64,000 nucleotides of DNA from an uncultured Elusimicrobia bacterium (GTDB lineage Bacteria; Elusimicrobiota; Elusimicrobia; 2-01-FULL-59-12). The position numbers and the translations under genes are program-made. Numbering within the stretch: the first letter of the stretch is position 1; each line of letters begins with the position of its first letter. Positions 1 to 64,000 of this stretch are shown in pieces. The notes under the pieces were generated by a model. That model saw nothing but the letters and a program-made list of their open reading frames with translations, was not told the origin of the DNA and ran no database searches. The DNA lies in assembly GCA_963702895.1 (NCBI GenBank), contig OY969767.1, forward strand, positions 2,496,001 to 2,560,000, in the 5' to 3' direction.

Positions 1-542
1 CAAAGACAACCTCACCTGCCGCATCACCGGACAGCAAGAAATTCCCTTAAAAAACGGCCTGTTGTACGATCGCACCATTGAGCTTACAGGCCCACGCACC
101 AAGACGAAATACAAGAAACCTTTACGACTCATCGGCTACTACGATGCCGACACCGCCATCACTTACCAGTTTATGACCAATAACTTCAAACTGGCCGCTT
201 TCACCATTGCCCAAATCTATAAGGCCCGTTGGCAGATCGAGCTGTTCTTCAAGTGGCTCAAGCAGCATCTCAAAATCAAAACGTTCCTCGGCACTTCCAA
301 AAATGCCGTCTTTACCCAAATCTGGGTGGCCTTGTGCTATTTCCTGCTCCTGGCCTACATCAAGTTCCAGACACGATTCCAGCGTTCGCTGTTCTTGCTG
401 CACCGGTTGGTTCAGAATACCCTTCTCGACCGGCTCAGTCTCATCGATCTATTGCGTATGCCCGAAAAGAATCTTTCAAAAGTTCGAACTATGGAGCCTC
501 AGCTATGGCTAAGCTTCGGCTAACTTTTACCGGACACCAGTG
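1..542 (+). mobile_element. IS4-family insertion sequence, right part (transposase C-terminus to 523, element end ...TTTTACCGGACACCAGTG)
   Basis: ORF contains the IS4 Y-x2-R-x3-E-x6-K signature (IYKARWQIELFFKWLKQ). The same sequence occurs inverted at 63656-64000, and identity stops after CAGTG at 542. Confidence 0.9.
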
Positions 543-574
543 GGCGAGGATGTAAAATCTATGATTCGAATCCA

Positions 575-11031: not shown

Positions 11032-12234
11032 ATGGACCTTGAACTCAAGAATGTCACCCAGCGCCTCGTGAACGTTTGTTTTGCGCTTTTTCTCCTGTGC
11101 GGCGCCTCCGCCGTCGCGTCCGCAAGGGAAAATTACACAGGAAACCATACCCCGGGCCAATACGTTCCCCTTGATCCAACTTTCGCGGGTGCCTACCTAG
11201 GTCAATTAAACGAACAGCTTCAGCAGGGCCTTATCTCGTACGAGGAATATGAGCAGGCCATGACGCAAGCCAGTAAAGGCGCTCGGCCTTCAGAGAGGCG
11301 CCAGCGGCCCCCGCGTGCCCCTCAAGGCAACTCTCTAAATACTCCTTCTACACCTGCTACGCCCCGACCTTCTGGGTCCAATACTTGCGACAACATCACA
11401 GGCTGTGGAGCGTGTTTTTTGACCGCGAACAACAGCTGGGATAATAGCCGGTGCGTCCCTGGAGATCCCAGCGTATTCCTTGGTTGTGACTTTAAGGCCT
11501 GTGGGGCGGTCTCGGACGGGTACGCCTGTGGCACGAGCCAACCCGGCCCTTCAGGCTATGACTGGCCCTGCAAATCGGGATCGGTTTGTGCGGGCCCGAG
11601 TCCGGGCGGCAATTTCACGGGCGTCTGCCGCCCGGCAAGCGAGGCGGGACAGCTCGCGGGAACTGCTTTCATGTCAGGGTTTGATACAGCCAAACTGAAC
11701 AATCCAGCCCACAAAACACCGAAATATATCTTTGCTCGCACCGTCTTGGAACTCGGCCTGAGCGCCTCCGCCTCGCGGGACCATCTCCAGCCGCTGGTTG
11801 ACGTGCTTCGCCAACGGGGGTTGCCCAACGCGAAAGTCGCTGGCGATGACAAAATTGATTTTGGCAAGGGCGTCGGCGTGGTCGATGTGATCACCCGCGA
11901 TGGCGTTTGGTGGTGGGGGCCCGAGTCGAGCCTCGAAAACGATTCCGCCGCGGCGGTCTCTGCGTCTTCGCCTTTCATGGAAGGCTTCGATACAGCCAAA
12001 CTGAACAATCCGGCCCACAAGACCACGAAATATATCTTCGGTCGCACCGTTCAGGAACTTGGCGTGAGCGGTTCCTCCTCGCGGGACCATCTCCAGCCGC
12101 TGGTTGACGCGCTTCGCCAAAAGGGTTTAACCGACGCGAAAGTCGTGGGCGATGACAAGATTGATTTTGGCGCTGGCGTCGGCGTGGTTGATGTGATCAC
12201 CAGTAAGGGCACCTGGTGGTGGGGAACGCCGTAA
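11032..12234 (+). CDS. Secreted hypothetical protein with a 10-Cys region and two tandem ~84-aa repeat domains
   Basis: Signal peptide ending ASA; repeats FMxGFDTAKLNNPAHKT...KIDFG.GVGVVDVIT...WWWG. Confidence 0.8.
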   Translation: MDLELKNVTQRLVNVCFALFLLCGASAVASARENYTGNHTPGQYVPLDPTFAGAYLGQLNEQLQQGLISYEEYEQAMTQASKGARPSERRQRPPRAPQGNSLNTPSTPATPRPSGSNTCDNITGCGACFLTANNSWDNSRCVPGDPSVFLGCDFKACGAVSDGYACGTSQPGPSGYDWPCKSGSVCAGPSPGGNFTGVCRPASEAGQLAGTAFMSGFDTAKLNNPAHKTPKYIFARTVLELGLSASASRDHLQPLVDVLRQRGLPNAKVAGDDKIDFGKGVGVVDVITRDGVWWWGPESSLENDSAAAVSASSPFMEGFDTAKLNNPAHKTTKYIFGRTVQELGVSGSSSRDHLQPLVDALRQKGLTDAKVVGDDKIDFGAGVGVVDVITSKGTWWWGTP

Positions 12235-20573: not shown

Positions 20574-20768
20574 TGGAGGGAGAGGTCCGCCGCACTCCCG
20601 GCGGATCCGCCGGACGTCTGGCGGAGATTCGTCCGCCACTGAGTCGCTGGCGGACCCGCCTACGTCTTAGTGGCGGGGAACCTTCGGTACGCCCTCCACT
20701 CACCTGGCGGGCGTCCGCCTGTAGTGTGGCGGACGGTTTCCCGCACAATGCTTTTCAAGAGCATCGCC
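20574..20768 (-). pseudogene. tRNA-Ser(UGA) 3' part carrying six inserted hairpins (partner of the 5' half at 38556-38594)
   Basis: Removing the hairpins gives GGCGATGCTCTTGAAAAGCATTGTGCGGGAAACCGTACCGAAGGTTCGAATCCCTCTCCCTCCA; 16 bp shared with 38556-38571. Confidence 0.85.
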
Positions 20769-20789
20769 TCGTGGCGCTTGTGTAGGTCG

Positions 20790-20852
20790 TGAGCGGAGGG
20801 AGAGGGATTCGAACCCCCGGTACAGTTTCCTGTACACCTGTTTTCAAGACAG
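20790..20852 (-). pseudogene. tRNA-Ser(UGA) 3' half, integrase-proximal att junction
   Basis: CTGTCTTGAAAACAGGTGTACAGGAAACTGTACCGGGGGTTCGAATCCCTCTCCCTCCG; 13-bp core shared with 37294-37306. Confidence 0.9.
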
Positions 20853-20957
20853 CTCACCCTCTGTTTCGACGGTTGCTTGATTCAGTTTGATTTATGGAAG
20901 AGAAACGCTGATTGGATTCGTCCCATTTCCATCTCCATTTACAGCCCGATTTACAAC

Positions 20958-22013
20958 TTATGCGATTACGGGTGGCTTTGGCAAGGTCAAAACCCCTTCG
21001 ATGTTGTGAATTTCATCGGTCAGGTCCTTCCTATCCAAGTGCCCGTAATGTTGCTCCGTGACGACCGAAGTGGAATGCCCCAATATCTTTGAAACCTTAT
21101 ATATCGGGGTACCCCCGCTCAGCATCCGTTGCGCGAATGTGTGACGCAGACAATGGAAAGTGAAATCCATCACTTGCGCATCCTTACAACAGTCCTTAAA
21201 CCATTCGCTAACTGTAGTGCAGTGAACGGCATCCAGCAAACGCGTCTCTGGATCTCGGCCAATGGCACGCTGAGACACGACTTCCGCCACTTCTCGCGTG
21301 AGTGGCACATGACGACTGCGCTGAGTCTTCGAATTCGGAACGAAGATGTAGGGCTCCGGGTAAGGGATGAAATCTCTGACCCTTGTCGCCCATATTTCCC
21401 CGATCCGCATTCCGGTATGAATCGCGATGACGTAGTAAGGCCAGAGCCGTGTATGCTTTGCCACGATCGGCGTTAGCCTTTTTTCCTCATCAGGTGATAG
21501 ATACCGGACTCGCGCTTTCGGAACTTTGGCCATCGGGACACCCCAAGCGGGATTGTCTCCGAAATACATCCGGCGTTTCTTGACCCAATTGATAATCGCC
21601 TTTAATCCGGCGTGATACCGGTTCACGCTGTTCAGCGAAATGTGGGGGCTCGAAATGCCGGGGATTGTCTTTTCGACAAACCTACGGAAACCCTCCACAT
21701 CTTTTGGGCCTATGTCTCGTATGCGCCGATTGCCGAAGTAACGCTTTATCCCCTTGATGTATGCCCTATCTCCCTTCCAAGTCCTCTTAAAGGGCCGGGC
21801 GTATTCATCAAAGAACTCGTCACAGGCATCACTCAACTTCAAGTTATCGTTGCCCAATTGGCCTGTCGCCATGCGCTTGAGCATTTCTGACTTCTTGTGT
21901 GTCTCCGCTTTTGCGGCATTACCGCGCGTCTTGTAGCCTTGCTTCCATTTCGTCTGTTTGCCGACTTGGAAGCGGTAACACCATTCTCCGCTTGGCAGTT
22001 GTCTGACCGACAT
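20958..22013 (-). CDS. Tyrosine integrase
   Basis: TGMRIGE, HCLRH, LGH and HY catalytic set; N-terminal arm-binding-like segment. Confidence 0.95.
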   Translation of the reverse strand: MSVRQLPSGEWCYRFQVGKQTKWKQGYKTRGNAAKAETHKKSEMLKRMATGQLGNDNLKLSDACDEFFDEYARPFKRTWKGDRAYIKGIKRYFGNRRIRDIGPKDVEGFRRFVEKTIPGISSPHISLNSVNRYHAGLKAIINWVKKRRMYFGDNPAWGVPMAKVPKARVRYLSPDEEKRLTPIVAKHTRLWPYYVIAIHTGMRIGEIWATRVRDFIPYPEPYIFVPNSKTQRSRHVPLTREVAEVVSQRAIGRDPETRLLDAVHCTTVSEWFKDCCKDAQVMDFTFHCLRHTFAQRMLSGGTPIYKVSKILGHSTSVVTEQHYGHLDRKDLTDEIHNIEGVLTLPKPPVIA

Positions 22014-22051
22014 TTAAGCCTCCTGTCGGCCAAACCTACCGCACGGGTACA

Positions 22052-22261
22052 TTATAGATCCCATTTGAGATTGTGTGGGTTGTTGGCCGCGAGCCATTTC
22101 TCAATATCAATTCGACGAAAAATGACCCTTCTACCGACATGAATGAACGGAATTCGCGCATTACTGGTCATTTTTCGGATCGTTGACTTCTTAATCCGAA
22201 GCAATTCAGCCAACTCCGTAACGTTCAAGAAATCTCGCGGACTCTCAATCGGTGTCGTCAT
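22052..22261 (-). CDS. Excisionase-like HTH protein
   Basis: FLNVTELAELLRIKKSTI...IPFIHVGRRVIFRRIDIEKWL. Confidence 0.88.
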   Translation of the reverse strand: MTTPIESPRDFLNVTELAELLRIKKSTIRKMTSNARIPFIHVGRRVIFRRIDIEKWLAANNPHNLKWDL

Positions 22262-22297: not shown

Positions 22298-22963
22298 TTA
22301 TTCATCGCTTGGCTCCGAGCCGTGTGTCTCATCCGCAGAATCAGGAGACCGAGCATACTCCGGCCCTTTTCTTCTGGCCTGTAACCGTTCCAGTTCATGG
22401 ATGCACCTGAGGAGCTTCCGTTCGATGCTCGTTTCATACTGGGATAGCAGTTGAAGGCTCTCCTGCACTGTCTGGAATGAAAGACCGGGCACAACATCTG
22501 CTCCCCCAGTCATTCGGCTGAGGCGGTCGATCTGTTTCTGAGCACGCGCCTTTCCCTCTGGGTCAAGAATCTGCTCGAATGGCTCACATAATTTATCCTC
22601 CATGGGGTTCACTATTGCGACATATCGCTTCGCTTTTTCCCGTGCCTCTACCAGCCATTGCGTCAAAAGGCCTCTCATCAAAAGTCCATGTTCCGCATTT
22701 TCTGACCGTCGGAGCCTCCACATCAAACTCGCGACTCTATCAGTCATGAATTGTTCCATGGAACCCTCCGGCTTGTATAAATGATGGACCCCTTCGCTCA
22801 GTTGTTCACATTCTTGGGGATCTTCGTTCGGCAGGACTGCACGTTCCGATGTAAGGCCGTGCTTCAAGGCATTCCTCGCGATAATTGCTTTGCCCGCCAG
22901 ACTTTTTACACCTCCTGCTTTCGCATTGATCCGATTGGCTTGATTTTGCTTTTCAGTGGCCAT
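22298..22963 (-). CDS. Hypothetical mobile-element protein
   Basis: MATEKQNQANRINA...ARNALKHGL...WRLRR pattern; GGGGG RBS. Confidence 0.7.
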   Translation of the reverse strand: MATEKQNQANRINAKAGGVKSLAGKAIIARNALKHGLTSERAVLPNEDPQECEQLSEGVHHLYKPEGSMEQFMTDRVASLMWRLRRSENAEHGLLMRGLLTQWLVEAREKAKRYVAIVNPMEDKLCEPFEQILDPEGKARAQKQIDRLSRMTGGADVVPGLSFQTVQESLQLLSQYETSIERKLLRCIHELERLQARRKGPEYARSPDSADETHGSEPSDE

Positions 22964-25445
22964 ACTGACCCCCCCTTTGGACTTCAAATAGTGAAGGCTG
23001 TGAACTTGGTGAACCATTTTCGACGTGCTCAGGATTAGGGATGTCCGTTTCTCGGGGTCCATTAAGTACAACATCGGGCTGGCCGAGGTTCACAGGGTTC
23101 ACAGGTTCACTGAGTGAAATGAGTTTCCACTGCTTTGCCCGTTGCTTTGATCCGGCCAGTAGCACACGGAATTCATCGAATTGCCGGTCACGGAGTTTCA
23201 TGAGTTCTTGACCCATCTTGGTTCGACGGCTTTTCTCCTGACCCAGTCCAAGGTTTATGGGTTCTTCCAACTTCTCGTTCAGATCAAAGAGTTCCGCCAC
23301 CCCTACCTCAGCGTCGCCATGGACTTCCCACCACCTCTGTATAAATCCCCGTAAGATGTTGCCTTCCTCATCAGATGCGCCGTAGAAGTCGTTGAGATTG
23401 CCAAGGAATCCGGGCACACCGGCAACCGATAGGACTCCACCCATGGTCTTTGACCAAGATTCGAACATTCCCAGACTTACACCCTTGAAAGGAGGCCTTC
23501 CTTGAGCGATCCACCCCTGAATGATGGTCAGAGCGGCCCAGATAATCTGCGGACGCTTTTCTCTTGCCCAGCACATAAGGTCTGGATGTCGAAATCTGTC
23601 GCGCAACCATGGGCGGTCAGCTTTGGCATCCATTCTTATTCTGATCGAGCGGCGGGACATTTCGTTGGATAAAGCTGGATTATTTCCATTGGCAACCCAA
23701 GCGCATCTCACTGGCAAGGAGATGACTTTTGAGAACCCTAGAATCCGATCCTCCCAACAAGGCGAAGTGATGGCTGACGCGAGTGCGGACGAGTCCAGCC
23801 GTCTTCTGATGTTGTCGATGAGCAGGATGTCGGGTCTTTCCATGAGTTTTGACGTGAGTCTTTTTCGCCATTCGTCAGAATCCCTCCCCTCACTCATAGT
23901 CGATACGGGCCGACCCAGAGAAGCAAACGCCACAGCGTTGATCAGAAGCGTTTTCCCAGTTCCGGGCGATGGGGCTTCTACGAGGTGAAGCGGTGTCGCT
24001 CCATTAATCAGATCCCTCGCAAATGGAAGCAACAAAAGCGCAAACGCATGGGCACGCTCCGCCTCTCCTGTAAACGGGAACTCCCCGATCAGTTCATCTA
24101 GGATCAGGCCGCGAGCTCCTTGCAGTTCGTCATGGCTCGGTACTGCGGCGACCTCAGGAATCTCTCTGGGATCAGAATGAAAAAGGTATGTCTGGCTTGC
24201 TGGGTGGTAGCCAGATGATGTTTGCAATAGCCCTTCCGGAGAAAATACCGGAGCTTCCACGATGCGGGTCAATATTGGCAGGGGTAATTCGGGAGATGCC
24301 AGCATGTCTTTGACAACATGCATCGGAGGTAGCACGGGATAGACTTCTCCTTGGTAAACGCGATACCAATCCGCAGAGCGAGCCAAAACATGCCGCATCT
24401 TGTCCTGAACCAATTCCCTCAAACGCGGGTATCCCTTATCGTCTTTTTCGATTCGAACCGGCAGACCTCCTGAGCGGAACAGTGTGGGGGGCCGATTGAA
24501 TTGCTCAACCGCTTCCCATGCCAAAGGCGTAATTCTCTTGAGTTCAAAGTCTCCTGCATCGATGTGCGGAAGTGAATCAGCGCTCTTGCCGATCTCATGA
24601 GAGACTATAGGCAACATTAAGGCCTCTGCTGAATCTCGCGCCGCAGAAAAGCGGCTTGAGAACTCATTGGGATATTTAAGATGCAGGTCGCTGAGGTCCT
24701 TGGCATCACTCAGCTTGATTAGTTTGAGGATTCCATGCCATTCAAGGTTCTGCACACGGGAGGAAATCCCATCGGCAAATACCTCGCCGCCTCTATCGGG
24801 CTCTTGGATCACACAGAGTTCCTCGAACGCCCGGATATGTTCAGCGTTAAGCTTTTTGGCCATATCGGCACCCGGAAGTCCCAGCACGGGCAATTGATGA
24901 AACCAACCCGTTAAGACATCGGTCTCGCCTTCTACGAGCACCAGATACTTCTCAGATGCAAATTCTTGCAACCTCCACAGCCCGTATGGAACCGATGACC
25001 CTGACCCACTCGACCACCTACTCCCTTCCTTGGCAACTAAGGAAGTCCGAATCCTCTGGCGGGAGGCTTTACTGCCGTCCATCAATCGATAGGTTATTCT
25101 TGCGCCCTTGAATGGAATATCCTCCACGCCGTGTTGTCTAAGAAACTGCGAAGGCAGGTGCTTGTGCTGGGCAATCGCCTCTACAGTTACCAGCACCCGG
25201 TGCTTCGGTTCTGTGGTAGGGACTTGGGCAAAGAGCGTTTCTAACGGAAGTCTTAACGCTTTGCGAATGTTCTCAAAGGGGCACCCCGCAAAGCATTTGA
25301 AAAGGATTTTCCCATCGTTCCCAATCCCGACTGATAGGCTCTGTTGTCGGTCCTCGTGCGACGGACAAAGTGCAGTCCACTGGGATTCTCCGTTCTTTTT
25401 GACACCTTTGAGGCGAGACAACACAAGTTCGACACTCATTGCCAT
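22953..25445 (-). CDS. Primase-helicase-like replication protein (Zn finger, TOPRIM, P-loop ATPase)
   Basis: CPSHED...CFAGC; LVEGETD, EPD; SPGTGKT, LLIDN. Confidence 0.85.
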   Translation of the reverse strand: MAMSVELVLSRLKGVKKNGESQWTALCPSHEDRQQSLSVGIGNDGKILFKCFAGCPFENIRKALRLPLETLFAQVPTTEPKHRVLVTVEAIAQHKHLPSQFLRQHGVEDIPFKGARITYRLMDGSKASRQRIRTSLVAKEGSRWSSGSGSSVPYGLWRLQEFASEKYLVLVEGETDVLTGWFHQLPVLGLPGADMAKKLNAEHIRAFEELCVIQEPDRGGEVFADGISSRVQNLEWHGILKLIKLSDAKDLSDLHLKYPNEFSSRFSAARDSAEALMLPIVSHEIGKSADSLPHIDAGDFELKRITPLAWEAVEQFNRPPTLFRSGGLPVRIEKDDKGYPRLRELVQDKMRHVLARSADWYRVYQGEVYPVLPPMHVVKDMLASPELPLPILTRIVEAPVFSPEGLLQTSSGYHPASQTYLFHSDPREIPEVAAVPSHDELQGARGLILDELIGEFPFTGEAERAHAFALLLLPFARDLINGATPLHLVEAPSPGTGKTLLINAVAFASLGRPVSTMSEGRDSDEWRKRLTSKLMERPDILLIDNIRRRLDSSALASAITSPCWEDRILGFSKVISLPVRCAWVANGNNPALSNEMSRRSIRIRMDAKADRPWLRDRFRHPDLMCWAREKRPQIIWAALTIIQGWIAQGRPPFKGVSLGMFESWSKTMGGVLSVAGVPGFLGNLNDFYGASDEEGNILRGFIQRWWEVHGDAEVGVAELFDLNEKLEEPINLGLGQEKSRRTKMGQELMKLRDRQFDEFRVLLAGSKQRAKQWKLISLSEPVNPVNLGQPDVVLNGPRETDIPNPEHVENGSPSSQPSLFEVQRGGQYGH

Positions 25446-26355: not shown

Positions 26356-29166
26356 TCACTCCTCCTCAAATTCGGCGATATTGAATCGCAAGGTGTTGGC
26401 ATTTTCCTGAACGATTCGGCGGGTGGAGTCCGAGACTCCGCCGGGTGACTCGGCCTCGATCTCCATCGTAATCTTGACCTTGGTTCCGTACTGGCTGGTG
26501 AAATGCTGAACGACCTCATCAGCGATCCGAGCGGCCTCGATCCCCATCTTGACCGGATCGAGGGGCACGGAACCGTGGAACCGCTTCATTGGCTTGGATT
26601 GAGGAGCTGATGTGCCCGGCAATCCCCCGGCGATTGGAGTCTTTCCACTTGGTGTGACCTCTGGTGTGGAAGGGGCTGTACCGTCCTTGACCATCCCGGC
26701 CTGCCGAGCGAGGGCTTCTCTCTCAATCTGGGCTTTGGCGGCGACCGGGTTGATGAGAATGCTGACCTCATCCTTGTAAACCGTGCCCTGTTTTCCGAAC
26801 AGGAGTCCCAAGTACCGTCCATCCTCTTTCCCGGTTGCGAAGGCGAAAAAGTCCTGACTGCCTATCCCGGCAGAAATCGTTTCAAAGAGCACATGGGTAT
26901 CCACAAGGCGAGGTAAGTATGGATAACAGCAAACCGCTTTCCACACTTCCTTGACGGTAACCTCCGGGCGGTCATCCTTCCAGAACCACTCCCGGAGCAT
27001 ATCGCGCAGATGAATTGGTGACCACCGGGGATAGATGAACTCATTTTCGACGCAGAGCTTCTCTATCGCTTCCATCGGATTGGACCCGGCGGATTGAAGG
27101 CTCTTTTCCCCCCAGAACACATCCTTGGCTCCACCCTTCGAATTGGCTTCCTGCGCCGGAACCAGAACCCATCTGTACACTTCCTTCACGGCGGCGCTGA
27201 CCCTGCCGTCAGCCTCATCCCGGTTGTCCTTCGATTCCTTGATCTGGTGCTGATCCAGATTCAGAAGCGCCGTGTCATTGACGATGCTGTCCCACGCCAT
27301 AAACCTTTTGACCTGATCCCAAAGGTGGGTGCTCGCATCCTCGTCCGCCGCCAAAAAGACGAGCCTGTTCTGGTTCTGGCGTGGCTGTTGACCTCTCTGC
27401 GTGTTGATCGTGGAAGCGGCATCCACGGCCCTCGATTTCGGAGTCTTGCCACGGTGCGGCGCGGCTGGCGACAAAACGACAAGCCGTACGGATTCGTCGT
27501 CCGGGATGTCCTCATGTCCCGTGAAAACATGGACTCCCGAAAAGGGACCGCCCCGGACAAGATTCCGCACACGATTCTGTATCTCCGGGATCAGATGCTC
27601 GTCCCGTTGGAACCGGGACAGCCTGTCCTCCATCTCACGCCTCAAATTCGGACGAGTGTCGTACCAATACCTGTCGTTCCCGGTGTAGAGATGATGAAGC
27701 TGGTCCTCCAAATGCTTCAAGGCATCGTCATATCGTCCGATCTGTTGTCCGGGCTGGGCACATCCCAGCCGCACGCGCTGGGCATTCACGCCCCGCACTC
27801 TCTGGGCCGCGACCGACGGAGCGCTTCCCAAGAAGATCGTCCGGGCGACGCGCCGCGCCGCCTGCACGCTCCCTCCAAGGGGGTTTTTCTTGTCCATTTC
27901 GGTGGGTACAGCTTCATCGCCATCAATATCGTTCTCAATGACTGCGTCCCAACCCTGTGGGAGATACCGATTCAGTTCATTGTCCACCTGCGGATCATAA
28001 AGCGGAAACGAGCCGGGCATAACGAGCAGGTCTGTGTTCCCATCAGCCCAAAGCCGATGAATGACCATCGCCATGAGCCGGAGTACGCCTCGCGTGCGCT
28101 GAAAGTGTTCAAGGCTGGCCCAATCCTTGTATAAGCGCTCAAAGACTTCCGGGTGGATCGGGTAGGAATCCGTCAGTTGGGTCAGGTAGGCGGCTTCAAC
28201 GGTTTCAGATGGAAATTGCCCCTTGTTCTCGACGTATAGATCAGCAAAAGCGCGGGAGACGGCATCCCTCGTCTTTGTGTCTTTGATCTTTCCAAAAAGC
28301 CGTCGCCGGACGATCTCAAACCCTTCATGCGTTGCCACGGGCTTCCAAATGGCTTCCTTGCGGCCAAAAATCTTCTGGATTTGCGCGAGCGCGACCTTCC
28401 CTCTCTCGCCACCGACTTCCATATCCGATTCTGGTAGCGATGCCAAGAGCACCATGTTGGTCTGCTCCGCCGACTCCGTCAAAGCCTGAAAAAATGACAG
28501 GTTCGAGTCAAAAGTCCCGCCAGAATACTGTTTGCCATCCTCAAACTGGCGGAGGTATGCCACGGTTTCGTCAATGAGAACGACGCATGGAGAGTATTTC
28601 GTGAACAGCTCGACCAATACTTTCTTGCCCGGCGATGTCCCGTCACGGTCAGATGCTTCGACCAACTTGTAACCCTGATCGCCACCCAGTTGCCATCCCA
28701 GCTCCCCCCAAAGTGTTTTAACTTCAACGCCATCGCGCTTTCTTGTGTGAGACGGACTGAGAGCGTTTCCGTCAATGATGGCAACCCGCGCACGGGGAGA
28801 TTCTTTTATGCCAGCTTGGTCCAAAATCTTTGGGATTCCGGCCAGCTCCTTGGCCGGGCGTTTGGATGTCACCAAGTGATAGACAGCGAGCATGGCGTGA
28901 GTTTTTCCGCCGCCGAACGCGGTTTGGAGCCGGATCACCGGATCACCACCCTTGCCTGCCAGCCTGCGTAGAACGCTATCGAGAAGCAGGTGCATTCCCT
29001 CGGTAATGAACGTCCGATCAAAAAAGGTTGCTGGGTCTTGGTATTCCGGGGAGGCTTTTCCTTCGGCGACCTTACTGAGGTCTGCGGCGAACTCAGACTC
29101 CTGAAAAGTCCCTTCAAGCACATCGCTGTTAGGTGGTATCACGTCTCGCCACGGTTTAAGGCTCAT
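26356..29166 (-). CDS. DUF499 AAA+ ATPase
   Basis: [32 protein letters not shown] and [12 protein letters not shown]. Confidence 0.92.
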
Positions 29167-29182
29167 AAGTTTGCTCCCGCTC

Positions 29183-32026
29183 TTAGATGTTTAATTCCGT
29201 CTGCTCGTTGACGTGCCCAACCTTGTGGCTGGTTTCGCTCACGCCGTGCCAGCTCACAATCAGCTCGTTGTAAATCCGAGCTTCCTCGGCCCAACCTTTT
29301 TTTTCGCAAAGGGTATAGAGTCGGTATGCCAACTGCCGTATGCGTTCCGTTTTTTCTGGCATCTTGGCAAGAAGCGCTCCGGCTTCGGATTCACTTACAC
29401 GCAATGCTCGGCTCAACTGATGGCACGCCTCCCAGATAGGAACCCTTGCGTCTTTCTCTGGATTCCATTCGGCAGAATACTCAGAGACTTTGAGGAGCCG
29501 TACTTTACCAGCGCCAGCTTCCACCACACCCGCGTCTGATAGTCCACCCACGCTTGTTCCTTTGGCTCTGGCAAGTACATCAGCCTCCCCATAAGCTCCT
29601 GCCTTAAAACCATATTGCTGAAACCAATCAATACAGAATCGGGTGTCCGAATCCATATCGCTCTCAGCGTGAGTGAAATACTCCTCGATGGCTTTGTTGA
29701 TGAGTTTGAGAACGGTATGGACTGACATTGACTTTCCATCAGCTTCCAAAACGGCGGGATATTGAGAGAACACAGCCATGCCCGGACCGATAGCCGCTTG
29801 TGCGAGGTCAACAGGTGCAATGGGACTCGCCCCCTCTGTGCCGCCGATCATTGCCTCAAGCGCTTCCGGGAGTGATTCATCGAGTTCACGAAGGAATTGT
29901 TTTCTCGGAACGGTGGGAGTATCGGCAGGGCGTTTTCGACAGACAAGAACAATGGATGATGCCAATGCGTTTGTGTCCGCACCCACCATTCTGTTGCTAA
30001 GTTCCGTACGCATGGGCCATGTTCCTGTGATCGCAAAGCCTGATCGGATCACCGCCTCAAGAAATGTTTCCCAGCCAGTAGATGTTGTCCCTTCGCTGTC
30101 TGTCTCTGCCTGCTTGAAGGCATAGTAAATCGTCACTGGAATAGCCGGGTGACTTACCGTCTCTATGTTGTGAACAGCTTGAGACATTCCATTAATAAAA
30201 AAGGTTTCCGCGTTATCTTTCCCGCCATGCCTGAAAGGACTCGCAATAAGTTCCTGAGCCTTCGGAACTAATAATGTCGAAAATAGCTCAGGGAATATTG
30301 AGCGCAATGAGCGACGCAACCAAACATAGAAGAAGTCAGAAAGATCAGCGTAACCAATATTGTCGTAATAGGGTGGATCGGTTGAAATTATTGCTCGATT
30401 CACATAGTTTTCAAATGGAGCCATCGCATCGCGCTGAGTGACCGAGGCCGAACGATAGACGGGCAGATTAAGGATAGCTTCACTTATTGATGATAACGAC
30501 ACCACAAAATCGCCTGCCGCTCCTGCGAAGGGATTTACATCAGGAAAATCCCATGTCATCGGGATTGCTTGCCTCGCAAAAGCGGTCACAGTTTGTTCTC
30601 TGCTTGATGTCCACCTTGCTATCGTGCATAGTGTATTTGCCATTCGACTGACACCCATCGACAAATAGATGGCAATCGCCTCGGCATAGGCTTTAGCACC
30701 GACCCCATTTTCCATGAGTCCTTTACTACCATCAGATGGATTTAAGGTCTTAGCATCTGACATTATCTTCTGTCGCACCTCTGACACCAAATCTGAGAAA
30801 GTGGACATAGCAACTAATTGGCGGGACGTAAACAGATGCCGATGTTTCGTCATGCCATATTCCTGTATACGGAAGCCCAGTGCTTTCTTGGGGAGATCGG
30901 TGTCTGGGATGTCCCGTGGATCGGCAGACTTAGCAATGCGTTCCATATCGTCGCTTGCTGGCAGATAAATACGGCCTGATTTGCATTCGACAACAACAGC
31001 CATCAACCGTTGGCTCATACGGCCAGCCTTTGCTTCTGAGCGGATGTAATTAAACGGGACAGGAGTCTGAGACAGGAGACATATAGCTCCATTTCGATTG
31101 ACAGTGCCTTCAATCGTCGGTTTTCCCTTGCCAGCTCGGATTACAAATGAGTAACTCATCTTGTCCTTAGCAATTTGAGGTTCAATCCATACTTTCTTGT
31201 CATCCTTCGTCGATAGCCAGAATGAACGCACCAAAGGAATGTGTACGCCTTTGCAGGCAGGGTTCGGACTTGCAACAGTCCGTGCCCAAAGCCACGCAAT
31301 TACGTTCGCTTTTCCTGCACCATACTCTTTGGGTAGATCGACCTGTGGGTAAAGGTAACCAATCCGTTTGAAAGCTTCGTCACGCATCCATCTACCATAG
31401 CGACGCACATCTTCGGCCAATCCTTTTGCCCCGGACCAATCCTCCATTGCGTCGATCTGTTCCTTTTCATTCAGAGGAATTGGGCCGATTGGTTTGCGTC
31501 CAGCGAATTTTGGTGGAATTTCTAAGAGTGCTTTGCTGATCATTACGGCCACAGGGTTCAAATCGGAAGCATGAGCTTCAAGACCTAGTCGCTGGGCCTC
31601 AAGCGGTATAGAACCACCTCCTGCAAAAGGATCGAGGAAGGGTGGCAATTTGTCTGGGTTCTCGCCTGTAAGCTTGCAGGTTTCTACCCACGATTTACGA
31701 ATCTCAGTGCGTGCTTGTTCCAACACTTTCTCGTTAGTCGTGCTCTCCCATTTCACCAGCTCCCTGACAATAGCGAACAGCCGCTCTCTCTCTTTGAGCG
31801 CATCTGCTTTGGTTTGGCCGGGATAAGCGCCATAACCCCTCTCGCCGCCGGGATCGTTCACCATTTGGGCAAATAGAACGGCTCTCGCCGCCGCTAAAGG
31901 CCGTCTTGCCCACCAGAGATGGAGGGTTGAGGGGTGTCCATGTCGGATGGACTTCTCCCGGACACAAGCCTCGTTAATGTCGTCAAGGGGCAAGGCCACT
32001 TCGATCAGCTTCTTGGGGTATTTCAT
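29183..32026 (-). CDS. DUF1156 amino-DNA methyltransferase
   Basis: [20 protein letters not shown] and TDPPYYDN. Confidence 0.92.
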
Positions 32027-35000
32027 TCGCGTGTCGCCATCTTCAATAGTGCCTTGATCTCGTAATTCATGCTTTCTACTCCGAAAGGGGCTTCATCCTT
32101 GAACGCGCCGCGAACGTAGAATGGGCCTTCCGTTCGTTCTCCGTCCACCAGAACGATGGCGAGCGCAAATCGGTCCGGCTGGTTGAACCCGGTCAGAATC
32201 TCGTTCTTCGTGACCGTTACGGTTTGCGCGTCCTTGGCGCGGCCTTTAACCTCAACAAACTTCAAGTCACCGCTTTTCAATTTGGAAGTGATGTCCCAGC
32301 CGCATTTCTGTTTGGAAACGTCTTGAGGAGTGTTGTTCAGCGATAGTTCATGGCGCATGACCGCTTCCATCGCCATCCGTTCGATCTTCTCGCGGACGGC
32401 AGGGTCCTGCGTCATCAGATCACCAGACCCCATTTTCTGGCGCAAGAGGCCCGCCGGAATGACCAGAGCGCCGCCCACCACACGCGGAGTGGCAGATATG
32501 ACGTGGCGACGGGCTTCCAAGTCGGTTTGCCGTTCTTTGAGCCTCTGGTCCAGCTCCTCAGCCCGTTTGCGGGCATTGTCTGGTTGAAGGCGGGGTTGCT
32601 TGCCCAAAGAAACCTGTTCCTGCAACTGGGCGGCACGCTTCTGCCAGTATGTGATTTCCTTGACCAAGCGCTCCTGAACGGCCTGCAAGGTCGCATCAAT
32701 TAGCCGCTCTTGCCTCGATTGGACCTCACGGAGGTGCTCTGGCACTATGGTTTGCGCGGCATGGGCAATAATCAATGGCTCAAGGTCTTTGTGTAGCCAT
32801 TGCTCTTGCAAAATGTCCTTGATGTGCTCACGTTCCTCATCCTTGAGCGGTCGATAATCCAGATAGGGGGCATAGCCACCTTGCGCCACTTGCCCCTTCC
32901 GATCCACCTGCACAAACTGCAATCGCTCAGAAATCGGTCTTTGCTTCCCGTGTCGGTCCACCGCCCCATCACGAATCTGGTGTTCAAGGATAAACATGAC
33001 TCTCGGCTCCACTCCATCGTCGGCGCTGTCCACCAGAACGGTTCCGCGTTTAAGCAGGTCGCGGTACTTCTCGACAACGAGATCGAGTACTGAATCCATT
33101 AAGGGATGACCGGGGCATATTAAAACGGCTGGGGGCTTGCCGTTTTGTCGTATCTTGCTTTTCTCAAAACAGATACGTTCGTACTTTGGCGTAACCGGAT
33201 GCCCGCGTCCGATGACTTTGTCTCTATTGCGGATTACTGATGGGACGTGGGTGATCTCATAGCGACCTGATTCGCGTTGATGGATCTGCCCACCAAAGCA
33301 GGAAAATCCTTCGAGGAAGAATGCGCGGATAAAGTGTGGTTGGAGTTTCCGGGCTTCGGCCTTTTCCATATCGTCTTTGAGTGCGAAGACTTTGCTCGAA
33401 TCCATGTGCTCGGTTGCCAATGCGACGCGATCCATAATATCGCGCAACCGTTCCCGGTCAAGTGCCCCTTCGACCTTCTGATGCAGTCTGGCCTTGGCTT
33501 CCGGTGTTTCTCCTTCCCGGATGGCCTCGATAAGCAACTCGCGTAATGCAACTCCGCTAAAGACTTCACCCAGAATGTCGAATACACGGCCACCAAGCGC
33601 CTGCCGCTCGATATCGAGCTTCTGCAATAGCCTCTCGAACACATCGCCTTCGCGTGTTTCCTTCGCCACCATGTTCCAGCAATGACAGATTTCTTCCTGC
33701 CCGATGCGATGGATGCGGCCAAAACGCTGTTCGAGACGGTTGGCGTTCCACGGAAGGTCATAATTTATCAGCAGGTTGGCCCGTTGAAGATTGATACCTT
33801 CACCTGCCGCATCGGTGGCGACAAGGATCAAAACGTCTTTCTGGTTTGTGAACATCTCTTGGGTTTTGCGCCTCTCATCCCGATTCATGCCGCCATGAAT
33901 CGTCACAACCGCATCGTCGTTACCCATCAAGCCTTTGATCTTGTCCACCAGATAGCGCAGAGTATCTCGATGCTCGGTAAAAACGATCAGCTTGCGGCGG
34001 TTGCCGAACGAATCCTTCATCTCCGGGGTGTCTTGGAGCAGGCGGGAGAGTTCTTCCCATTTTTTATCCTCTCCCGATACTCGGACTTGATGTGCCTGCT
34101 TTTCCAGCCTCTTTAGGCTCTCGATCTCTCCTCCCAGCTCCGTGATGGTCTGAGCCGCTGTCGCCTGATCGACGACCTTTTCTTCGAGCGCCTCGACCTC
34201 AGAGTCCGGCGCGTCATCCAGAAAGTCGGCTATATCTTCTTCGGAGAAAGCCGGAAGATCAGGCTTTGCTACTGGGACGGTCTGCCCGCGTTTGCTGGAT
34301 AGCTCCTCTAACCGACCCTCCAAATTCTTGCGACGACGTTCGAGAGAGCGGAAGATCGCCTCCGGGGAAGATGCCAGTCGCCGTTGAAGCGTAGTCAATG
34401 CAAACCCGACCGTACCTCGACGATTGGTATCGAGTTTGTCGGCGCGGTCCATTTCGCCACGGACGTAGCTGGTCACCGCCTCATAAAGAGCCGATTCCTG
34501 TGCTGAGAGCTTGTAATTGGCCGTGTAGGCTTTGCGTTCCGGGAAAAGGGGTGTTCCTTCGAATGTGAGTAGCTCCTCCTTAATCATGCGACGCATCAGG
34601 TTAGTCACATCAGGTTGAACGTCTTTCTCTCTCGGTTTCCCGTAGAAACGATCTGGGTCCAAGAGAGCCATGAACAGATGGAAGTCCTCCGGCTTGCCGT
34701 TGTGCGGTGTGGCTGTCATCAGCAAGAGATGGCGTGTGATCCGGTCAAGCAATTTGCCGAGGTTGTACCGCTTCGTCGCCTTGATCTCGTTGCCGTAATA
34801 GGTCGCGGACATCTTGTGTGCTTCATCAACCACGATCAGGTCCCAGTCACTGTGGCTGAGACGAGCTTCTAATTCTTCGTCGCGGCTTAGTTGATCCAGA
34901 CGGCAGATTAGAAGGCTGTAACGCGGATCAGCGAAGATTTCTCCGGCGTGGCTGGAATTGTCCAGTTCCCGGCCAAAGATGTCGAAGACAAGGCCGAACT

Positions 35001-35517
35001 TCTCCTCAAGCTCATCCTGCCATTGTTCGACAAGCATCCCCGGCGCGATGATGAGACATCGCTTCACGTCTCCCCGGAGCATCAATTCCCGGATGAACAG
35101 CCCAGCCATGATGGTTTTGCCCGCGCCGGGGTCATCGGCTAAAAGGAATCGCAGGGGTTGTTTGGGAAGCATGGCATCATAGACAGCGGTAATCTGATGC
35201 GGCAAAGCCCGTACGTTGCTGGTATGAATCGCCATCAGTGGGTCAAACAGGTGGGCAAGCTGAATCCGTTGGGCTTCGGCGACAAGCCGGAAAGTCTGAC
35301 CATCCCCGTCAAAGGTCCACGGTCGACCTCCCATGGCGACAGAAAGCTTGTCCTCGTCCTGTCGGAACAGCATCCTCTCGCCCGTTCCACCAGCATCGTC
35401 ACGGTAGAACACACTGACCGCGTCGGTCCCGACCGGATTGACAGCAACGACCTTAGCCGCTTGATGCGGCAGAATCCCCCAGACAAGGGTTTCAGGTTTC
35501 AGTTCTTCGAGTTTCAT
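32023..35517 (-). CDS. SNF2-family helicase with C-terminal DUF3883 nuclease-like domain
   Basis: [32 protein letters not shown]-terminal GWDI...VEVKG. Confidence 0.93.
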
Positions 35518-36322: not shown

Positions 36323-36412
36323 TGGCGGAGGGTGAGGGATTCGAACCCCCGATAAGCTTTCGCCTATAACGCTTTTCAAGAGCGTCGCCTTCAACCGCTC
36401 GGCCAACCCTCC
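36323..36412 (-). tRNA. tRNA-Ser(UGA), intact, 90 nt with encoded CCA
   Basis: GGAGGGTTGGCCGAGCGGTTGAAGGCGACGCTCTTGAAAAGCGTTATAGGCGAAAGCTTATCGGGGGTTCGAATCCCTCACCCTCCGCCA folds as a full class II cloverleaf. Confidence 0.96.
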
Positions 36413-37178: not shown

Positions 37179-37293
37179 ATTTACAACTCCCTACGGCCTC
37201 ATTTACAACCTGCCCATAAAAACAGGGCTATCTCTGTCATCCATCGTATCACTCGCTCCGTCGAACAGGTGCGGTAGGTTGGCCGGTTTATTG

Positions 37294-37334
37294 GTTTTCA
37301 AGACAGGCTCCTTAAGCCGCTCGGACATCCCTCC
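37294..37334 (-). pseudogene. tRNA-Ser(UGA) 5' half, distal att junction
   Basis: GGAGGGATGTCCGAGCGGCTTAAGGAGCCTGTCTTGAAAAC, then non-tRNA sequence; acceptor and anticodon stems pair with 20790-20852. Confidence 0.9.
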
Positions 37335-37471: not shown

Positions 37472-37724
37472 CCTTCGGTACCCTTACGGGCACAGCTGTT
37501 TTCCCCTCCACTACATTGTTGGAGGGCCCGCCTAAGCCGGAGTGGCGGGAAGACATCCGGATCCCTCCTGCCCATTCCTTAAGGAGGAGGACCGCGCGCC
37601 AGTTACGCATCGGCGCGAGGTAAACCTCCGCCACATCCGACACACGTCAGTCGGATCCGCCCGAAGTGTGGCGGACGACAGGCGGAGAGCGCCTGTCGTG
37701 TGGCGCTCACTCTCCCAAGCCTCC
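37472..37724 (-). pseudogene. tRNA-Ser(UGA) pseudogene with eight hairpin insertions
   Basis: GGAGGCTTGGGAGAGTG|GTTTA|ATCCGGATGTCTT|GAAAACAGCTGTGCCCGTAAGGGTACCGAAGG after removing 37626-37707, 37563-37620 and 37504-37549. Confidence 0.85.
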
Positions 37725-38394: not shown

Positions 38395-38555
38395 AGCTTC
38401 TAGATTATATGTCCTGTACCCACAGCTTTCCACAAAAGGTTTAGACCTTCATACGCCCGACTTTACAACAACAGGACACAAAAGTGTAAAACTCGGTACA
38501 ACTCCGTACAAGTCCTTTGAATGAAAAACTGCGCGACGTTTGGCCGTAGGGTAAC

Positions 38556-38594
38556 TTTCAAGAGCATCGCCCTATACCACTCGGCCATCCCTCC
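38556..38594 (-). pseudogene. tRNA-Ser(UGA) 5' half, att junction
   Basis: GGAGGGATGGCCGAGTGGTATAGGGCGATGCTCTTGAAA, then non-tRNA sequence. Confidence 0.88.
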
Positions 38595-39249: not shown

Positions 39250-39690
39250 TTGACAACTTCATTGACGGCCACACCATCTATTTCAGGCTATGCCCGCCAA
39301 CCTCTGTCTCACTCACCCTGTCGTCCCGGTCCCCCATTTAATTTAACCGGCCGGGACGTACCGACTAAGATTCGCTCGCCGGAGGCTCGCTTCACGGTCG
39401 AACGGTACGAACAGGTGCGGCCGCCTTATCGGCCCTCCGAAGCCTTGGCGAAGGAGGGTAGGTCGCCAGACTTCCGGCGACTTCCGCCACAAGACGGGCG
39501 GACTCGACGGCTGTGTGTCGAGCACCGGACGGCTTGGCGAGTTGGCTGGTTTATTGGTTTTCCCACCTTCGCAACAACGCGCTGCCGCGCCGCTACGGTG
39601 GGCAAGCAAGACATCCAGATCCCTCCTTCCCATTCTTTAAGGAGGAGGGCCGCGCGCCAGTTACGCATCGGCGCGAGGTAAACCTCCGCG
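39250..39690 (-). repeat. Degenerate att junction: tRNA-Ser D-loop/anticodon relic fused to a homolog of the 37180-37300 arm, with several hairpin insertions
   Basis: 39608-39689 nearly matches 37550-37631; gttggctggtttattggttttc matches 37278-37299; cgaacaggtgcgg is also shared. Confidence 0.8.
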
Positions 39691-42134: not shown

Positions 42135-42353
42135 CCTGGGAAACTCCTTACCACATCGTCAACGCCCGACACACGTCCGTCGGATCCGCCCGAAGTGTGG
42201 CGGACGACGGGCGGAGAGCGCCTGGTGTCTGGCGCTCGCGCGGCCCCGTCTCTTGCATCGTTCGTCCCTGGCGAACTTATTGGTCGGGACCGTCCCGGCT
42301 ATTATCGCTCACAATCGCGAGCGTGATAAAGAGGATAGGACGGCCACCCCTCC
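42135..42353 (-). pseudogene. tRNA-Ser 5' relic with multiple hairpin insertions
   Basis: GGAGGGGTGGCCG at 42353-42341; the hairpin block at about 42165-42236 closely matches 37636-37707. Confidence 0.65.
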
Positions 42354-62782: not shown

Positions 62783-63658
62783 TTACGGTCTCTCTTTCCG
62801 ATAGATGCGAATTTTCTGATCAACGCGAGGGACAATCGCGAGGAAATAGGGATGGCTCATGGGGGTCGTGCTGATTTGCGTCGTAGTGGCCGGCGCGGGG
62901 ACGGGCGGCGCCAGGATACGGTAAGGCGCTGACATGGCTCCCTCCATTTCTTCGATCACGCCAAGGTCGATCGACGCGCCCGGGGGGCTGGCGCCGGCGA
63001 AAATACCCAGAAGGAGTTTTGTGTTAAAGTCGATCGCGGGCCGTGGCCCTTGGAGGCCCATCTCTCCCCAAAGTTGTTCCCAGGCGTCCAAGCGCCTGAC
63101 GACCACCACGCGCGGTTCCTGTATGCCGCTGTCTGTGCCCTTGAGCGATTGGAGGACCGGCAACGTGAGCGGCGGTTTTGGCGGTTCGGGAGGCTTTACG
63201 GCTGGCACAGCTTTAGCCGTCGAAGAAGCTTCGGATTTCGGTGCTGTTGGTTCGGGAGGAACCGGTTCAGATTTCTCTAAGACGGGCTCGGATGGCTGTT
63301 GTTTTAATGACAAGTCCGAGGGAGCAGACTTCCTGTGCGTCTGCGCGCGCCGCGCGTAGCCCCAATACGCCAAACCGACTAAGGCAACGAGAAATACAAC
63401 AAGCTTCCATCTTCCTGAAGTGGCTGGGCTATTCATAAAAGATTTGCCTTGTCGCGCCAGAAAAAGGTTGGGTATTCGTTCCGGCGAGGCTTTCTTGAGC
63501 GCCTCACGATTGCTGCGCGCTTGCTTGGCGCGCGCCTTATTGAGCGCGGCCTGGCATTTCTCGCAGGCCACCGCATGGGCCTCAATCTGCCGACTGCGGC
63601 TCTCTGTAAGTCCTCCGGCCAGATAGACCGTAATCTCGGATTTAATGTGATCGTTCAC
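62783..63658 (-). CDS. zf-HC2 anti-sigma-like membrane protein with a Pro-rich linker and periplasmic domain
   Basis: HAVACEKC (H-x3-C-x2-C), one TM segment; the GTG start lies in the IS end. Confidence 0.7.
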   Translation of the reverse strand: MNDHIKSEITVYLAGGLTESRSRQIEAHAVACEKCQAALNKARAKQARSNREALKKASPERIPNLFLARQGKSFMNSPATSGRWKLVVFLVALVGLAYWGYARRAQTHRKSAPSDLSLKQQPSEPVLEKSEPVPPEPTAPKSEASSTAKAVPAVKPPEPPKPPLTLPVLQSLKGTDSGIQEPRVVVVRRLDAWEQLWGEMGLQGPRPAIDFNTKLLLGIFAGASPPGASIDLGVIEEMEGAMSAPYRILAPPVPAPATTTQISTTPMSHPYFLAIVPRVDQKIRIYRKERP

Positions 63659-64000
63659 TGGTGTCCGGTAAAAGTTAGCCGAAGCTTAGCCATAGCTGAG
63701 GCTCCATAGTTCGAACTTTTGAAAGATTCTTTTCGGGCATACGCAATAGATCGATGAGACTGAGCCGGTCGAGAAGGGTATTCTGAACCAACCGGTGCAG
63801 CAAGAACAGCGAACGCTGGAATCGTGTCTGGAACTTGATGTAGGCCAGGAGCAGGAAATAGCACAAGGCCACCCAGATTTGGGTAAAGACGGCATTTTTG
63901 GAAGTGCCGAGGAACGTTTTGATTTTGAGATGCTGCTTGAGCCACTTGAAGAACAGCTCGATCTGCCAACGGGCCTTATAGATTTGGGCAATGGTGAAAG
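63656..64000 (-). mobile_element. IS4-family element, partial, inverted copy of the left-end IS
   Basis: Reverse complement of about 198-542. Confidence 0.9.

Follow-up and report, generated by a model that had tools for sequence, protein, structure and literature searches.

Complementarity between an integrase leader and the distal attachment arm in an Elusimicrobiota tRNA-Ser island and its relatives: a predicted retroregulation variant

In the DsrA–rpoS and crRNA/taRNA systems, an RNA pairs through an exposed end with the repressing arm of a leader hairpin and thereby frees the ribosome site. Integrase genes of mobile elements are also subject to control by sequences that recombination attaches to them or removes. 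In phage lambda, sib lowers the amount of int mRNA made from unintegrated DNA, and an int-only promoter lies inside xis, as far as the accessible text goes (PMC5300877). In ICEclc (Pcirc; PMC5812530) and ICEKp1 (PMC13023037), the excised form gives more Int, favouring integration; according to the accessible parts of both papers, att lies upstream of int and control is exerted through promoter and termination. The ICEKp1 paper also speculates on pairing between a leader stem-loop and a sequence of 15 bases at the junction (PMC13023037, in part). The transposase mRNA of IS200 (tnpA) and that targeted by IS10 RNA-OUT combine a buried ribosome site with a complementary RNA; art200 pairs upstream of the hairpin-buried Shine-Dalgarno sequence and still represses, as described in the available portion of PMC4513863. 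Finally, in the tRNA-dependent lysogeny of Fionnbharth and the cluster L mycobacteriophages, a short core lies in a tRNA gene, the tRNA is not rebuilt, and a same-isotype replacement is carried (PMC10865867, in part); the word "antisense" does not occur in the main text of that paper.

The locus described here lies in a window of 64,000 nucleotides (the whole stretch of DNA that was analysed) from an Elusimicrobiota genome of 2.72 Mb. It resembles lambda sib in that a sequence beyond att would act post-transcriptionally on int mRNA and is added or removed by recombination, and in its predicted int-only promoter in xis. Whereas sib, in the available description, is a self-contained negative element on a long transcript, the distal sequence found here shows complementarity to the 5′ leader, with which it covaries, and its predicted effect is activation. 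A sib-type hairpin with terminator and RNase III site was not found; the conserved feature is the leader complementarity. The system would thus be a variant of retroregulation that follows sib-type logic without a sib-type terminator hairpin and with the opposite predicted sign. A higher Int output of the excised form is expected as in ICEclc and ICEKp1; here, however, int points to att, the junction is downstream, circularisation sets no outward promoter upstream of int, and the predicted control is translational 5′–3′ pairing. Unlike art200 and RNA-OUT, which as far as described are encoded opposite the leader and repress, the complementary sequence is encoded across att, 15 kb away on the same strand, pairs imperfectly with a bulge, and is bound to element topology. 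What sets the locus apart from DsrA–rpoS and crRNA/taRNA is that the mRNA would be triggered by its own 3′ end, which site-specific recombination attaches or removes. As in tRNA-dependent lysogeny, no tRNA is rebuilt at either junction and the only tRNA-Ser(TGA) lies inside the element, but no virion genes were found, and in most relatives of this integrase the tRNA is restored, its 5′ half being provided by the element. Wulff and co-workers are said to have described in 1993 (Mol Microbiol) that the int promoter of phage P22 is constitutive and that int expression is lower from the prophage than from free DNA, a reversed retroregulation. Such a result would agree with the sign proposed below and lessen the novelty of the phenomenon, and may anticipate part of the model. 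The accessible parts of three further papers added nothing on the control of P22 int (PMC6379469, PMC7067206, PMC3573128). Mycobacterium tuberculosis ncRv12659, considered as a parallel, is a junction RNA of a different layout, as far as described (PMC3861185). A literature search, with subscription papers mostly outside its reach, returned no description of leader/att-arm pairing.

The island covers 16.4 kb between two 13-bp cores and carries a tyrosine integrase gene and a directionality-factor-like gene at one end (Table 1). The closest named relative of the integrase is from Elusimicrobiota. When the flanks are rejoined at the cores, a complete tRNA-Ser(TGA) results, as expected for an island inserted in a tRNA gene. 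ARAGORN called no tRNA gene at either junction, i.e., the target tRNA is not rebuilt. The element's proteins gave no match to virion families, four of these proteins being without assignment.

Table 1. Features of the island and its surroundings (positions in the window).
Feature	Position	Strand	Remarks
3′ half of interrupted tRNA-Ser(TGA)	20793–20839	−	Partner of 37294–37334
att core, int-proximal end	20840–20852	−	Preceded by degenerate tRNA 5′ remnant
Tyrosine integrase (int), 351 aa	20958–22013	−	PF00589, phrog_1; points at near core
Cis hairpin of int mRNA (predicted)	21990–22044	−	Shine-Dalgarno 22019–22024 in 11-nt loop; start codon 22011–22013 and codons 1–7 in stem
int leader segment	22027–22044	−	Predicted first 18 nt of int mRNA; 5′ arm of cis hairpin; putative target of arm sequence
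−10 hexamer TATAAT of predicted int-only promoter	22051–22056	−	6 nt before motif; overlaps xis stop; spacing of 6–8 nt kept in homologues
xis-like HTH_17 gene, 69 aa	22052–22261	−	PF12728, phrog_66; ends 7 nt before hairpin
Primase-like replication gene	22953–25445	−	PHROG primase matches
Cargo: Hma defence system (HmaA, HmaB, HmaC)	26356–35517	−	PADLOC
Replacement tRNA-Ser(TGA), element-borne	36323–36412	−	Sole intact TGA serine tRNA found in genome (1 of 49 ARAGORN calls)
Probable Int arm-type repeats, far arm	37179–37209	−	Partners 20937–20957; putative role from tyrosine-integrase att anatomy
Short quasi-palindromic motif	37258–37268	−	Inverted partner 20861–20872; distinct from anti-leader; probable protein site
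Anti-leader in far arm	37269–37285	−	8 nt inside core; ~126 nt past int stop in excised circle
att core, far end	37294–37306	−	13 bp, anticodon stem-loop; direct repeat with 20840–20852
5′ half of interrupted tRNA-Ser(TGA)	37294–37334	−	Joined to 20793–20839 gives complete tRNA-Ser
Older tRNA-Ser 5′ half and diverged anti-leader	38538–38594	−	Outer int-less element; partner repeat 20735–20770
Second old arm copy	39408–39562	−	Anti-leader interrupted by palindromic insert 39421–39540

An earlier note on this DNA had reported that a segment of the int leader is complementary to a segment of the distal att arm. This match is real: the two minus-strand segments are reverse complements save for one extra T in the leader, and the arm segment, referred to below as the anti-leader, begins, as described there, 8 nt past the core that closes the tRNA-Ser 5′ half. 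The perfect 12-mer shared by both occurs once per strand in the genome, only at 22033–22044 and 37269–37280. Dinucleotide shuffling of the arm gave a perfect run of 12 nt in none of 150 cases, and none of 60 shuffles equalled the local leader/arm duplex (−34.6 kcal/mol). In a loose scoring of the whole-leader duplex, 136 of 6000 random genomic 54-mers did equally well; as this energy is weak against random windows, the significance lies in the contiguous helix and not in total pairing energy, and the whole-leader energy test was replaced by helix-length tests. The older arm copy near 39410–39560, in which the same note had seen pieces of the motif, indeed contains both motif ends, with a 120-nt palindromic insert between them. 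A third, diverged copy with nine matching bases (38538–38546) is located behind another tRNA-Ser 5′ half (38556–38594). Rfam covariance models run over positions 14000–46000 gave tRNA-related matches only, so that the leader/arm feature falls into no known Rfam family.

The leader motif forms the 5′ arm of a predicted hairpin with int codons 1–7 (−26.5 kcal/mol, z = −4.1 in this element), a structure the earlier note had missed, and the arm sequence would therefore target the repressing strand. The hairpin is kept in six close homologues, with 18 consensus pairs, two of which show changes on both sides. In the Endomicrobia-like clade, the alignment is poor and yields seven consensus pairs; each member for which both ends are available folds its own hairpin (−17 to −23 kcal/mol). 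The TATAAT hexamer lies 6 nt upstream of the motif, so that an int-only transcript would begin with the motif itself. A sigma-70 scan gave no promoter for int or the tRNA halves and no −35 box for int. In 9 of 15 Elusimicrobiota elements, the xis-type gene extends over the start of int.

Covariation among homologues, proposed earlier as a check on the pairing, was found. Both ends could be located for 15 Elusimicrobiota elements, which are inserted in tRNA-Ser, Glu, Leu, Arg, and Thr genes. The arm pairs with its own leader in 13 of them, although leader sequences differ between clades; the two without such pairing are G317 and G483 (G and L labels are ours). On the opposite strand of the arm, only runs of 4–7 were seen in these elements. 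An automatic screen provided 25 elements with both ends, and merging with the hand-found set resulted in 32, of which 22 contain an anti-leader complementary to their own leader. Excluded from this set were G536 (start unclear, arm run of 6), G062 (5′ end of int broken), and L092, which has a 14-bp match behind a different tRNA fragment; the far ends of G205, G181 C47, G407, G336, and G405 C71 were not found. The anti-leader accompanies a strong leader hairpin: it is present in 22 of 23 elements with a hairpin of −16 kcal/mol or stronger (the exception being G554) and in none of the nine with a weaker one (nominal p = 4 × 10−7, which is overstated since relatives are not independent). G534, a false positive of a loose aligner, was counted as negative; counting it as positive changes the weak-hairpin group to 1/9. 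In a 25 × 25 matrix, scores of at least 9 were obtained by 20 of 25 own pairs versus 18 of 600 cross pairs. Eight cross pairs reached 10, several of them between close kin, and the opposite strand never exceeded 8. Where an automatic −10 call was available, the pairing starts 6–8 nt past the hexamer in 15 of 17 positives. It ends 5′ of the Shine-Dalgarno sequence in every positive, the duplex end being only 0–10 nt short of it, and the linker opposite the Shine-Dalgarno sequence is unrelated and often A-rich. In a midpoint-rooted tree, the positives fall into two clades (Elusimicrobiota, and Nitrospirota with Kuenenia), with negative clades between them.

The same arrangement is directly visible in free phage genomes, in which the anti-leader lies past the int stop across attP. 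Nineteen phage records were picked for diversity, 4 of 29 from a search with this integrase and 15 of 230 from a search with the D3 integrase. Nine of them passed a shuffle test (1 of 40 or better), namely P22, HK542, D3, LC3I3, RSA1, Edno5, EhrS_59, BHUENT3, and Ssp-JY37; AP3 and BPM-V3 were borderline, and the other eight failed. In the phages that passed, the anti-leader is located 94–153 nt past the int stop, across attP and beyond the attP tRNA fragment. When one mismatch of any type was allowed, 11 of 16 distinct phages scored at least 10, which adds Medea1, Meifeng, and BPM-V3, whereas phiE202, AP3, Menos, LP-P111, and phiSP15-1 remained below 10. A compensated change distinguishes D3 from Medea1. 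The upstream ORF enters int by 94–133 nt in 8 of 11 phages. The phage −10 boxes were taken as the best match within 3–11 nt, so that their spacing is partly given by construction. A search of E. coli genomes with D3 int gave no match.

The integrated state of the same elements bears on the source of the RNA. Anti-leaders were found in 15 of 24 elements whose tRNA lies on the int strand and in 7 of 8 whose tRNA is encoded on the other strand; in these seven, six of which come from Nitrospiraceae genomes and one from Kuenenia, the anti-leader is still on the int strand, 22–50 nt inside the far core. The earlier note had assumed a chimeric half-tRNA/arm RNA transcribed from the host tRNA promoter. 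As no host tRNA promoter faces the anti-leader in these seven elements or in the free phages, such a promoter is not the common source. Common to all cases is that circularisation puts the anti-leader shortly past the int stop (28–159 nt in the 16 positives examined), i.e., downstream of int, beyond att, and joined to it only in the free form, which is the layout of retroregulation. The note's more general idea that the arrangement depends on the integration state is thus supported by the layout, with the anti-leader directly downstream of int in free phages. No intrinsic terminator was detected between the int stop and the core here or in the 23 of 25 others that were long enough to screen, the negatives being likewise without one, nor within 150 nt past the anti-leader here or in any of 25 elements. 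Among 174 integrase loci, no convincing circle form was found. For the present element, the pairing seed is predicted to be accessible in the transcript of the circle (0.1 kcal/mol) and sequestered in the chimera made from the host promoter (4.5–5.2 kcal/mol); G405 behaves similarly, the range for both being 4.5–5.2 versus 0.1–0.7 kcal/mol in the circle. The idea that the tRNA half masks the anti-leader in general was rejected, since the circle form is more open in only 8 of 15 same-strand elements. The tRNA half of this element can, according to the prediction, also pair on both sides of the Shine-Dalgarno sequence; this was discarded as a shared feature because it is absent in 12 other Elusimicrobiota positives. 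After integration, transcription from the host tRNA promoter should provide the 15 same-strand positives with an anti-leader in trans, and the switch would thereby be blurred; Int without Xis may then be harmless, or the chimera may be short-lived.

To estimate the sign of the effect, the cost of freeing a fixed window of int mRNA (−14 to +13) was modelled. For this element, it amounts to 18.5 kcal/mol in the free mRNA, 8.2 kcal/mol with the circle 3′ end, and 13.6 kcal/mol with the host-promoter chimera. In the models, the cost falls in 21 of 22 positives, 5 of 10 negatives, and 11 of 11 selected phages; it rises in G556a and drops by just 1–3 kcal/mol in G213, G249a, L119, Medea1, and AP3. 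This fall follows from the geometry and hence is no independent proof of activation. The geometry itself is that expected of an anti-antisense activator: in the predicted structures, the anti-leader pairs with the repressing arm and leaves the ribosome site free. The silencing of int proposed in the earlier note runs against this picture, because the pairing hits the repressing hairpin arm and spares both the Shine-Dalgarno sequence and the start codon, so that opening is predicted. The stronger argument for activation is that an int-only transcript, which has no upstream ribosome, would without an opener yield no Int alone for integration. The att-arm sequence is thus probably an activator and not a silencer of int, although a duplex so close to the Shine-Dalgarno sequence could hinder 30S loading.

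Taken as a whole, the pattern leads us to favour, with some reserve, positive retroregulation in cis, in which the int 3′ UTR of the circle would open the leader hairpin and integration would remove the opener. A promoter inside the end of xis would start an int-only mRNA at the motif, and its hairpin, predicted and conserved, would bury the start codon and keep translation poor. In the excised circle, transcription would pass the int stop, cross attP, and enter the far arm, so that the anti-leader would become part of the 3′ UTR, pair with the 5′ end of the mRNA, displace the coding strand, and free the ribosome site. The opened hairpin would allow the production of Int without Xis and thereby integration. 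Integration moves the anti-leader to the opposite end of the element, a distance of 16 kb in the present case, and the hairpin would remain shut. Upon induction, ribosomes translating xis would reach or cross the hairpin and open it, giving Int together with Xis and thus excision; that xis translation can do so is suggested by xis ending at the int start and by the upstream ORFs that run into int. In the present element, the host tRNA promoter may also yield a half-tRNA/arm RNA as a side effect of the orientation of insertion; according to the prediction, this RNA masks its own seed. Somewhat more tentatively, at odds a little better than even, this may be a widespread and hitherto unrecognised riboregulator, by which many tyrosine integrases of Elusimicrobiota islands, Nitrospirota, Kuenenia, and phages including P22, HK542, and D3 would sense the circularity of their DNA through the 3′ end of int mRNA, with xis translation as a second key.

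Other readings differ from this one in the molecule that is recognised, in its source, or in the sign of the effect. Judging from the sequence comparisons, arm and leader very likely pair as RNA, and the RNA-level complementarity put forward in the earlier note is supported by own-leader covariation and by an excess of G·U among the mismatches. Under a rule blind to mismatch type, internal mismatches were six G·U, one A·C, and two others in the elements, and six G·U, no A·C, and five others in the phages, in total 12, 1, and 7 (nominal p = 0.002); a looser aligner gave a noisy tally of 11, 7, and 53 that included one false positive. The same note had named a shared DNA site for Xis or Int as its alternative. 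Two inverted copies of such a site could mediate promoter autorepression at the leader, where one copy overlaps the predicted start site, and have a role in recombination in the arm, where the other adjoins the core, beside which accessory proteins bind. This is highly improbable, as the sequence is wholly different between clades yet always matches its own leader, bulges of 1–5 nt are common, and these as well as the ratio of G·U to A·C suit RNA. Moreover, the motif has no dyad symmetry, its orientation relative to the int strand is constant, and separate arm repeats and a separate conserved motif already account for protein sites. The model of the earlier note, in which a half-tRNA/arm RNA made from the host tRNA promoter after integration silences int, is also very improbable. 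The chimera should be transcribed here, and attP contains no intact tRNA half, so that the host promoter is a new input on integration. The supposition that the chimera pairs next to the ribosome binding site holds in so far as the tRNA half is predicted to pair with both flanks of the Shine-Dalgarno sequence; even so, opening the ribosome site costs less in the model with the chimera than in the free mRNA, the additional helix is not conserved, and the anti-leader is kept in the seven opposite-strand elements and the free phages, which no host tRNA promoter faces.

The sign could instead be that of lambda, with the pairing of 3′ UTR and leader in the circle repressing or destabilising int mRNA by a 30S block or an RNase III cut, and thereby preventing re-integration after excision. 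The precedents are sib itself, which according to the accessible text lowers int mRNA from unintegrated DNA (PMC5300877), and art200, which as described represses although it pairs upstream of a buried Shine-Dalgarno sequence (PMC4513863); the duplex found here likewise adjoins the ribosome site. We nevertheless regard this as quite unlikely, because the int-only transcript would be left without any opener and the element without a route to Int in the absence of Xis, the pairing spares the Shine-Dalgarno sequence in every positive, and the anti-leader is found only where a hairpin exists to be opened. Activation might, on the other hand, occur in trans by a separate small RNA, transcribed from a promoter in the int-proximal arm across attP or, in same-strand elements, from the host tRNA promoter. 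In same-strand elements, transcription of the rebuilt tRNA has to be provided by the element, −10-like boxes were noticed by eye before the tRNA half in some elements, and modelled half-tRNA/arm RNAs bind the leaders (−8 to −22 kcal/mol) and cut the opening cost in 13 of 13 cases. No conserved promoter was seen from the int stop to the anti-leader, however; helices of 10–18 bp are short for action in trans without a chaperone, and the distance from the int stop is always short in elements and phages alike, which together make this reading unlikely, if still worth considering.

Elements without a CII-like activator need Int on arrival, have to stop its synthesis after insertion, and must restart it together with Xis; positive retroregulation in cis would be a protein-free answer to this problem within the att site. 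As the layout is present in textbook phages, the proposal can be tested at once by compensatory mutations. It predicts that integration vectors in which int is separated from attP, or in which the arm is trimmed, change their Int output. The complementarity also offers a sequence rule for matching an integrase to its far att end in fragmented assemblies. If the model is true, the leader would act as a toehold switch of natural origin, with recombination adding or withdrawing the trigger.

Several observations concern the relation of these elements to their target tRNA genes. In a broad group of integrases, it is the 5′ part of the tRNA gene, and not as usual the 3′ part, that comes from the element (L002, L003, L005, L007, L009–L011, L019–L023, and many of L044–L203), and 69 of 283 integrase ORFs, duplicates included, have a same-strand tRNA just downstream. 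Several relatives contain a degraded tRNA 5′ half at the int end (L001, L288, L289, L125, L128, and L004), and a replacement tRNA is carried by G405, G483, and G317, which suggests repeated shifts to tRNA dependence among relatives. An element of the same kind is present in a selenocysteine tRNA gene of a Nitrospiraceae genome (L416, 11688–11770). In the Acidobacteriota locus L092 (3330–3452), the 14-bp candidate anti-leader is located behind a tRNA fragment different from the int-side tRNA, possibly owing to a target switch. Tandem elements that share one tRNA-Glu gene have separate leader/anti-leader pairs (G249 C17: L033–L035, L338–L339; G119 C25). Three different pairs are present in a single genome, and such distinct pairs would prevent cross-talk. 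Two of the tandem elements are ~60 kb in size. In L354 (G396), a copy of the int −10 region directly precedes the far-end tRNA half and is perhaps the scar of an earlier tandem element.

The surroundings of the present island contain a nested series of tRNA-Ser(TGA) sequences (20735–20770, 37294–37334, 38556–38594, and 36323–36412). An outer int-less remnant appears to have broken one tRNA-Ser(TGA) and carried a second, which the present element broke while bringing a third. Between 37550 and 40318, there are two MNT-HEPN toxin-antitoxin pairs, behind each of which come an 82-nt repeat (95% identity) and a copy of the att arm, and a PIN/VapB pair and a Fic gene are located nearby. A family of GC-rich palindromic repeats with ~12 loci genome-wide is clustered at the element ends (20586–20735, 37624–37723, 39421–39540, and 42153–42252); its copy at 39421–39540 is the one that splits the old anti-leader. 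A 253-nt repeat is present in two copies (11666–12224; 85% identical, 306 nt apart), and the ends of the window (198–566 and 63632–64000) form a 369-nt inverted repeat of 97% identity.
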